This document shows, piece by piece, positions 37,079 to 38,855 of a stretch of DNA of 64,000 nucleotides (position 1 is its first letter; each line of letters starts with the position of its first letter). The position numbers and the translations under genes were made by a program. The stretch is from Escherichia coli (GTDB lineage: Bacteria > Pseudomonadota > Gammaproteobacteria > Enterobacterales > Enterobacteriaceae). Location: the NCBI RefSeq assembly GCF_036507355.1, contig NZ_AP027877.1, one strand, 5' to 3'. The notes beneath the pieces were generated by a model. That model was not told where the DNA came from. It saw only the letters and a list, made by a program, of their open reading frames with translations, and ran no database searches.

Positions 37079-37391
37079 TAACATTTATCTTAGTTATGAT
37101 TTAAGTGCATGAAAATAATTGAGTTATATCATCATAGATTAAACGCTGTTATCTGCAATTAAGACTTTACTGAAAAGAAATGTAACAACTGTGAAAACCG
37201 AATAATAATATGAAAATATTACAAATCTTTGTCTGTTGTGGTTGGTGTAATCGGTTTCAGTTGTGATGATAATTTGCGGTGAAACGTGATCAGGAAGAAT
37301 GATGTTATTGTGCGGGCAGTTTTTTTGCCGGATGCGGCGTGAACGCCTATCCACCGCGGTGAGGTAAAAGAAAAAGGCCAGCGCGAGGCTG

Positions 37392-38817
37392 TAATGCCAG
37401 TCAGTTAAGCAACTGACTGGCTCTTTTTCGGGGCTGTGGGGTATTTCCAGGGCCTCTCCTTTACCACTCTCGGGAAGGCCCTTTCCCTTCTTGTCGGTAA
37501 TTTCACAAGTTGTCCCATACTTGCAAGATCGCGCATCAGCTCCGGTATACGTCCCGGTGAAGCGCCCTGCAATATCATCAGCATTCTCATCACCATTCCG
37601 CATGATTCTGAGAAGCTCAGTTGATTTGGCCAGTAACCTTTCAGATGTTCCGCCATTTTAATCATCTGATATCTCACCAGATTATAAGCCAGTAAGACAC
37701 CCCACAGCTCTTGCTCCACAAGCTCAGGCTTTTTACTTCTCAGCGTCAGCCTGCTCAGTTGCATCGTCTGTTTTATCTCCCTGTATCCCAGTTCGATTTC
37801 CCAGCGATGACTGTACAGATCCGCCATTTCTCCTCCGGGGAAGCGCATGGCGTCCGTCATCGACGTCAGCAGATGGCAGACTTTTCCTTTGCGCGTCACG
37901 GTCAGCAGGCGGGCTGTCACCTCATTTCCCAGTCCCGGCCACTTTTTTCGTGCCTGCGGGCTGGTTTTCAGCTTCACCAGATGATCGCCTTTACCCAGTT
38001 TTCTGATCTCTTCATATTGCGCTCCCTTTCTGAGAGGGATCATCCAGTGGCGGTGTTCTCCCGCCAGGCTCCAGGCATTTAACAATCCCAGTGAGTAATA
38101 ACCTTTATCCATTAACGTCAGAGTGTTATCGCCGGTTTGTTCTATAAGTTGCTCAGCAAGCTCATTTTCGCTGTTCTTCATCGTGCCGAAGGCTGCAGCC
38201 GTCAGCAGATGGCTGGTCAGTTCCATCTGGCAGACCATTTTGACCTGCGGGTAGAGCGCCGGGGTCCCGGCATGTGTCTGGCGAGGGAAGGCTGCATCGT
38301 TCTCTGGTGTATCCGGTGTGCGCCAGAACACACCATCGATGGCCAGCAGGGTCAGGCCGCACCAGTGCGGATGCGGCGTGGCGTTATGCCAGAGCTGCGC
38401 TGTTTTCGTGAACACGCGGCGGACAGCCTCACTTCCCAGGCGCTGGCGGGCCTGAATAACAGCACTGGGGGCAACGAAGGGGCGATTGCCCGGCAGCATG
38501 ATGTCCAGGCGATTCACAATCTGGTGAAGAGGTTCTTTACGCTCAAGCGCCATGCCAACAATACACCAGACCATCATTTCGAGGGGAAGACGGCGCTTGC
38601 GTAGCGTTACAGTACCTGATTCGGCAAGGCAACGAGAGATGAGTTCGGGGTCGAGGTAATCCCCCAGAGAAGTCAGTGGGTTACGCAGAGAATCGTAACG
38701 GGATACCAGATCAAGAGCCTGTCCAATGTGCATAAAAAAATCCGGAAACGAGTGAGCGTTTCCGGATTCTTACACAGCCACTGGATCGGTCAACTGATCC
38801 TTAACTGATCGGCATTA
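37392..38817 (-). mobile_element. IS4 insertion sequence (1426 bp), flanked by 13-bp direct repeat CAGCGCGAGGCTG
   Basis: Terminal inverted repeats TAATGCC...GGCATTA; identical 13-bp copies at 37379-37391 and 38818-38830. Confidence 0.9.
37405..38733 (-). CDS. insG: IS4 transposase
   Basis: 442 aa [20 protein letters not shown]...; sequence recognised as IS4 transposase. Confidence 0.9.
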
Positions 38818-38855
38818 CAGCGCGAGGCTGGCCTTTGAAAGCAGGTGAAGAAAGA

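Follow-up and report, generated by a model that had tools for sequence, protein, structure and literature searches.

In a 64,000-nucleotide stretch of the Escherichia coli contig NZ_AP027877.1 (assembly GCF_036507355.1; hereafter the window), an IS4 element lies between metK and galP. The explanation we favour, with a probability of about 0.88, is that the intrinsic terminator of metK, a recurrent and preferred target of IS4, received an intact copy of the element by transposition, and that the insertion is nearly neutral. The element itself is already known: this is the long-known IS4 at one of its preferred targets. The points added here are the identification of the metK terminator as the probable target, the evidence for a hot spot hit recurrently in two orientations, and the resemblance of IS4 targets to terminators with an A-run on one side and a T-run on the other.

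The complete IS4 copy spans 37392-38817 on the minus strand and is 1426 bp long. Aligned with the IS4 of MG1655, it showed equal length and differences at 14 of 1426 nucleotides without indels (99.0% identity to K-12 IS4). Comparison of the two ends identified the left inverted repeat TAATGCCGATCAGTTAAG (IRL, 38800-38817, minus strand) and the right inverted repeat TAATGCCAGTCAGTTAAG (IRR, 37392-37409, plus strand), which match at 16 of 18 positions and constitute imperfect 18-bp terminal inverted repeats. A repeat search placed CAGCGCGAGGCTG, with no strand assigned, directly outside both ends, with one copy on the galP side (37379-37391) and the other on the metK side (38818-38830); the two copies, 1439 bp apart from start to start, bracket the 1426-bp element and form a perfect 13-bp duplication. 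Because only ~0.02 exact direct 13-mers are expected by chance in the 1.6 kb examined, an exact 13-mer around an element with inverted ends is not a chance match. In MG1655, as aligned to the window, metK and galP are spaced by 423 bp without an IS and with one copy of the 13-mer, and the 13 bp are therefore a true target-site duplication. The earlier note had described a complete 1426-bp IS4 with terminal inverted repeats and identical 13-bp flanks, at a site without IS4 in K-12 MG1655; the matching ends, the Pfam matches given below, the exact duplication and the single 13-mer of MG1655 bore out this description. The length of 1426 bp was also found in 13 of the 13 other occupied loci examined, and the 13-bp duplication falls inside the range of 11-14 bp over the 15 junctions tabulated; IS4 typically duplicates roughly one helical turn of target, 11-13 bp. 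Near-identical copies of the window allele occupy other sites in related genomes, and the ORF and both ends of the window copy are intact, indirect signs that the element may be able to transpose. Clearly, the element is IS4 itself (IS4 family, IS4 subgroup of ISfinder), present as an ordinary, intact copy.

The single long ORF of the element (37405-38733, minus strand) is uninterrupted and encodes an intact InsG-type transposase of 442 aa, as indicated by the ORF list, by Pfam matches to Nterm_IS4 (3e-33) and DDE_Tnp_1 (1e-31), and by a Y(2)R(3)E(6)K motif at residue 307. The DDE domain and the Y(2)R(3)E(6)K motif are included in the definition of the IS4 family (PMC2266710). Compared to K-12 InsG, the window transposase has 4 amino-acid differences. 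The IS4 of K-12 (insG, b4278; NC_000913.3, 4502090-4503515), the prototype of the family, has the same length, the same ends and a 442-aa DDE/YREK transposase, but it is a single copy located between yjgZ and yjhB, with none at metK, and its duplication is 12 bp instead of 13 bp. Its target shows the A-run/20 bp/T-run spacing but has no hairpin. A 154-aa ORF across the junction between IS4 and its flank (37139-37603, minus strand) was rejected as spurious; it runs in another frame over the 3' end of the transposase gene and is of low complexity. In addition, there are three GATC (Dam) sites in the first 35 bp of the IS4 left end (38783-38817) and none in the right end. Dam-regulated ends are known for IS10 and IS50, of which the GATC cluster of the IS4 left end is reminiscent; we know of no study of the Dam/GATC sites of the IS4 end.

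metK (methionine adenosyltransferase, 384 aa; 38856-40010), the transposase gene and galP (galactose:H+ symporter, 464 aa; 35586-36980) are co-directional, all on the minus strand, with metK and galP identified from their ORFs and the annotation of homologous loci. The stop codon of metK is at 38856-38858, leaving a gap of 38 bp to the IS4 end (38818-38855), and the ATG of galP is at 36980, leaving a gap of 411 bp (36981-37391); the earlier placement of IS4 38 bp after the metK stop and ~410 bp before the galP start was accurate. A literature search on IS4 at metK/galP found nothing relevant.

Read in the direction of metK, the empty site is CAAAGGCCAGC-CTCGC-GCTGGCCTTTTTCTTT. It corresponds to the metK intrinsic terminator, AAA-GGCCAGC-CTCGC-GCTGGCC-TTTTT, and the duplicated 13 bp are its centre, made up of the hairpin loop plus the four stem pairs next to it. 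In K-12, this terminator starts 20 nt after the metK stop; the terminator scan of the K-12 empty site gave a 10-pair stem, 6 of the pairs being GC, with a loop of 5 nt and TTCTTTT behind it, and the reconstructed empty site folded at -19.7 kcal/mol. Based on alignment with K-12, the metK-proximal half of the terminator, AAAGGC + CAGCCTCGCGCTG (38818-38839, minus strand), has lost the 3' stem arm and the T-run, and the galP-proximal half, CAGCCTCGCGCTG + GCCTTTTTC (37370-37391, minus strand), retains a 4-bp mini-hairpin and the T-run. At neither split half did the scan of the window find a minus-strand terminator. As judged from this alignment, the target of IS4 is the intrinsic (Rho-independent) terminator of metK, which was split by the insertion. 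The splitting had not been noticed in the earlier note.

Between the T-run of the metK terminator and a REP there is a 13-bp indel (minus-strand TACCTCACCGCGG, 37354-37366), present in the window and in most occupied genomes and absent from K-12 and DETEC-P829. The REP (palindromic unit; 37328-37353, no strand assigned), which we take to be one from its consensus, has the terminator on one side and the galP regulatory region on the other. A REP-core 13-mer, CGGATGCGGCGTG, occurs exactly both in this REP (37329-37341), 50 bp outside IS4, and inside the IS4 transposase gene (38368-38380); the sharing is probably a coincidence.

Exact-protein look-ups of three IS4 transposase alleles gave further loci, at which the empty sites were then reconstructed. 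The ten other sites obtained were bamD/raiA, adhE/tdk, eno, ycaL/aroA, ssb/yjcB, tynA/feaB, yjbH, one integrase-adjacent site, one DUF2534-adjacent site and the K-12 site, and nearly all of them consist of an A-run, a GC hairpin and a T-run. At most sites, 3 bp separate the A-run from the duplication (range 2-5) and another 3 bp separate the duplication from the T-run (range 0-5); ssb/yjcB and tynA/feaB deviate from this 3-bp/3-bp spacing. Counting the window, 15 junctions were tabulated, and in 13 of them the A-run and the T-run are separated by 18-21 bp. The duplications at the sites examined were 11-14 bp long and usually formed the middle of a GC-rich hairpin. The metK site, AAA-GGC-[13]-GCC-TTT, fits the spacing rule exactly (AAA-N19-TTT), and the rule is in line with the IS4 target as classically described, AAA-N20-TTT. 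Repeated insertions, with duplication lengths 1 bp apart, were seen at the eno, adhE and integrase-adjacent sites, and those at eno occur in both orientations (the repeat-insertion loci are L018, L037, L039 and L042 for eno, L014, L034 and L045 for adhE/tdk, and also L040 and L041). The terminator hot spots at eno, adhE/tdk, bamD/raiA, ycaL/aroA and tynA/feaB present an A-run, a GC hairpin and a T-run after a stop codon, as at metK, and differ from the metK site only in the neighbouring genes.

Striking specificity in both arms of the target has been described for elements of the IS4 subgroup (PMC2266710). ISRm22 (IS4 family), IS1397, IS621 and ISPpu9 likewise insert into extragenic GC-rich palindromes between genes; the targeting of REPs or palindromes by IS elements, as safe intergenic sites, has been reported (PMC1525189). 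Unlike the REP-targeting elements, IS4 here entered the terminator hairpin and not the REP 26 bp away. Judging from the sites compared, what seems to guide IS4 is the presence of A and T runs and the distance between them, not REP sequence.

Of 5426 complete E. coli genomes, 2686 contain IS4 somewhere, and the element also resides on plasmids from Escherichia, Shigella, Klebsiella and Salmonella. Using a query across both junctions and accepting end-to-end matches only, we found IS4 at the metK site in the window orientation in 44 of the 5426 genomes; in each of the eleven loci retrieved from these, a 1426-bp IS4 occupies the identical position and is oriented alike. When IS4 was reversed between the same flanks to make a synthetic query, again with full-length matches only, inverted IS4 was seen at the identical position in 8 further genomes of the 5426, and the two loci retrieved from these both have the same 13-bp duplication. 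A count of 264 inverted genomes was rejected, because IS4 alone makes up 78% of the query and only 8 matches were full-length. Compared with reference genomes, as the earlier note had suggested, the site is empty in K-12 and the metK terminator is occupied by IS4 in ~1% of complete genomes (44 + 8 of 5426). In JX21CE8, the duplication at the metK site is 12 bp, not 13 bp, with a 1-bp assembly error possible.

The alleles of IS4 at the metK site fall into four groups. Between NT1N25 and DETEC-P829, IS4 shows 0 differences in 1426 nucleotides, whereas the galP-side flanks differ at 72 of 4287; ~24 differences in IS4 would be expected under co-divergence with the flanks (P ~4e-11). The indel haplotypes of these two genomes also differ, with DETEC-P829 lacking the 13-bp indel beside the site. 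Similarly, the IS4 copies of the window and JX21CE8 show 2 differences where ~12 are expected (P ~4e-4). ECONIH4, O15:H12, MS 115-1 and ST536 carry identical IS4 in flanks that are identical or have 1-2 differences, and O19:H7 730V1 and STEC388, related to the ECONIH4 group, carry near-identical IS4 with ~46/4340 differences on the metK side; the IS4 and flanks shared in the ECONIH4 group therefore point to vertical inheritance within a lineage as well. Taken together, the sequence comparisons support the metK site as a recurrent IS4 hot spot with several independent insertions. The two orientations set a firm minimum of two events, or three if the 12-bp duplication is real, and there have probably been five or more. 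Homologous recombination that moves IS4 segments between lineages could inflate the apparent number of events.

A single ancient insertion, vertically inherited and lost from most lineages, is very unlikely as the origin of these loci. It would accommodate the identical IS4 and near-identical flanks of the ECONIH4 group, as well as the differences of ~1% between IS4 alleles of different groups at the site, which are similar to the divergence of the flanks. It does not accommodate both orientations at the same position, the presence of both 12-bp and 13-bp duplications, or an identical IS4 within flanks that are 1.7% divergent (P ~4e-11); it would require precise excision from 99% of genomes, and other IS4 sites have been hit repeatedly too. 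Wrong placement of IS4 in the metK-galP spacer during assembly is exceedingly improbable. IS copies commonly cause misassembly, and the genome of the window lies outside the set of complete RefSeq E. coli genomes, to which the best identity of the flanks is 99.0-99.2% (its SpeA allele is far too common to tell lineages apart, and the window has no other IS copies that would point to a Shigella origin), but the 13-bp duplication is a perfect copy of a sequence that is single in the empty site, and the same junctions recur in 44 independent complete assemblies.

We propose instead that transposition into a preferred target would account for the recurrence. The IS4 transposase would favour targets composed of an A-run, ~19 bp and a T-run, and would cut the two strands 11-14 bp apart, with the stagger midway between the A-run and the T-run. 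A terminator whose GC-rich hairpin has an A-run ahead of it and a T-run behind it has just this shape. With its sequence AAA-GGC-CAGCCTCGCGCTG-GCC-TTTTT, the metK terminator is of this kind and would therefore be a hot spot, one that separate E. coli lineages have seen struck more than once and in either orientation. After the insertion, the metK transcript would meet only the 5' part of the old hairpin, without the T-run, and would then enter the IS4 left end.

Directly before the transposase ATG, there is a hairpin of 12-14 bp followed by U7 (38736-38771, minus strand; fold, z = -3.3), which is predicted to be an inward-facing terminator-like structure and should end the metK transcript ~90 nt inside IS4. 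This hairpin was not listed by the terminator scan, because its stem can extend into the U-run and leaves too few T's in the tail. A candidate transposase promoter, TTGACC-16-(TG)AAGAAT (38766-38793, minus strand; a consensus match only), overlaps the start of the hairpin, and a search of Rfam gave no RNA family within 36900-40400. At the IRR end, the scan matched an 11-bp hairpin followed by TCTTTTTC (37396-37421, plus strand); this structure is also terminator-like and inward-facing, and would act on transcription from the galP side, or from metK if IS4 is inverted. In the 8 inverted genomes, the IRR-end hairpin and TCTTTTTC would do the same job as the pre-ATG hairpin in the window. With an inward-facing hairpin and U-run within ~30-90 nt of each end, IS4 would probably replace the lost metK terminator. 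On the galP side, the hairpin of the IS4 end gives way to the 4-bp stem remnant and then to the old T-run.

The pre-ATG hairpin varies among IS4 alleles. At 38750 (IS4 column 1359), the plus strand has G in the window and A in K-12-type alleles (loci L003, L004, L031 and L047). The A converts a C-G pair of the hairpin into U-G, and this G-to-A change weakens the hairpin of K-12 IS4 relative to that of the window. It also creates a TTG on the coding strand 18 nt upstream of the ATG, and PGAP therefore calls a 448-aa product in some genomes.

Four sites of the galP control region were located between IS4 and galP. A CRP-type site, TGTGA-N6-TCACA (37044-37059, minus strand), and a Gal repressor operator, GTGTAATCGATTACAC (37063-37078, minus strand), were recognised by consensus, and with prior knowledge we take them to be the CRP and GalR/GalS sites, respectively. 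A second Gal-operator-like sequence with 1 mismatch (37245-37260, plus strand) is a consensus match only. The NagC operator, CTTAATTCACAATAAAAAATAAC (36997-37019, minus strand), matches the galP operator sequence listed in PMC3098098, and galP has a single NagC operator (PMC5401889). All four sites are intact, 131-373 bp from the IS4 edge, and the control sites are identical to those of K-12 except for one base in the Gal operator. This operator is a perfect 16-bp palindrome in the window and reads GTGTAAGCGATTACAC in K-12; the difference might slightly change its affinity for GalR/GalS.

At the galP-facing end of IS4, a simple scan found no hybrid or outward promoter. The earlier suggestion that the insertion could alter the galP promoter context has no anatomical support, because all recognisable sites remain intact on the galP side of IS4, none of them closer to it than 131 bp, and no outward promoter was found. 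As the galP sites are intact and IS4 has inward-facing terminators, the insertion is predicted from folds and consensus scans to be near-neutral for metK and galP. Near-neutrality would in turn explain the persistence of the insertion in whole lineages.

Alternatively, the insertion could be adaptive, selected for a change in galP or metK expression that arises from loss of insulation, read-through from the IS or an altered metK 3' UTR. We consider this quite unlikely. The metK terminator is physically destroyed, metK, the transposase gene and galP are co-directional in the window orientation, and IS4 occupies the site in ~1% of genomes, with fixation in some lineages, all of which selection would fit. 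Target preference alone, however, explains the recurrence, and hot spots beside unrelated genes fit it equally well. Moreover, IS4 occurs in both orientations, no recognisable galP operator or CRP site is damaged or lies closer than 131 bp, and the element shows no outward promoter-like site and terminator-like hairpins facing inward at both ends. A bolder extension, unlikely but deserving mention, is that IS4 may seek terminators with an A-run and a T-run and substitute its own terminators, present at both ends, thus preserving operon boundaries in either orientation; or else that the exchange between metK and galP subtly retunes the metK 3' UTR or the insulation of galP and has been selected in several lineages.

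Under the favoured explanation, that of a nearly neutral insertion into a preferred terminator, the finding matters little beyond annotation, and the polymorphic IS4 site can be used as a lineage or typing marker. It illustrates the tolerance of IS4, which lands in intergenic terminator hairpins and carries terminator-like hairpins of its own. For work on the metK 3' end or galP in IS4-carrying strains, the native metK terminator is to be regarded as split and the galP operators as not.

Elsewhere in the window, positions 1-15000 form a genomic island beside speC/nupG, with tyrosine integrases, a DUF927 protein, an AAA ATPase and an 'ABC-three component system' protein; the last represents a candidate defence system. 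Among 5426 complete E. coli genomes, only 1 has the first 20 kb, comprising the island and speC/nupG, almost in full; most of the island alone is found in at least two others. Between speA and speB, there is a hypothetical ORF of 243 aa (42927-43658). Some E. coli lineages have it (for example, JX21CE8, UCPROB-002 and loci L023-L030); others lack it, and in these speB directly follows speA.
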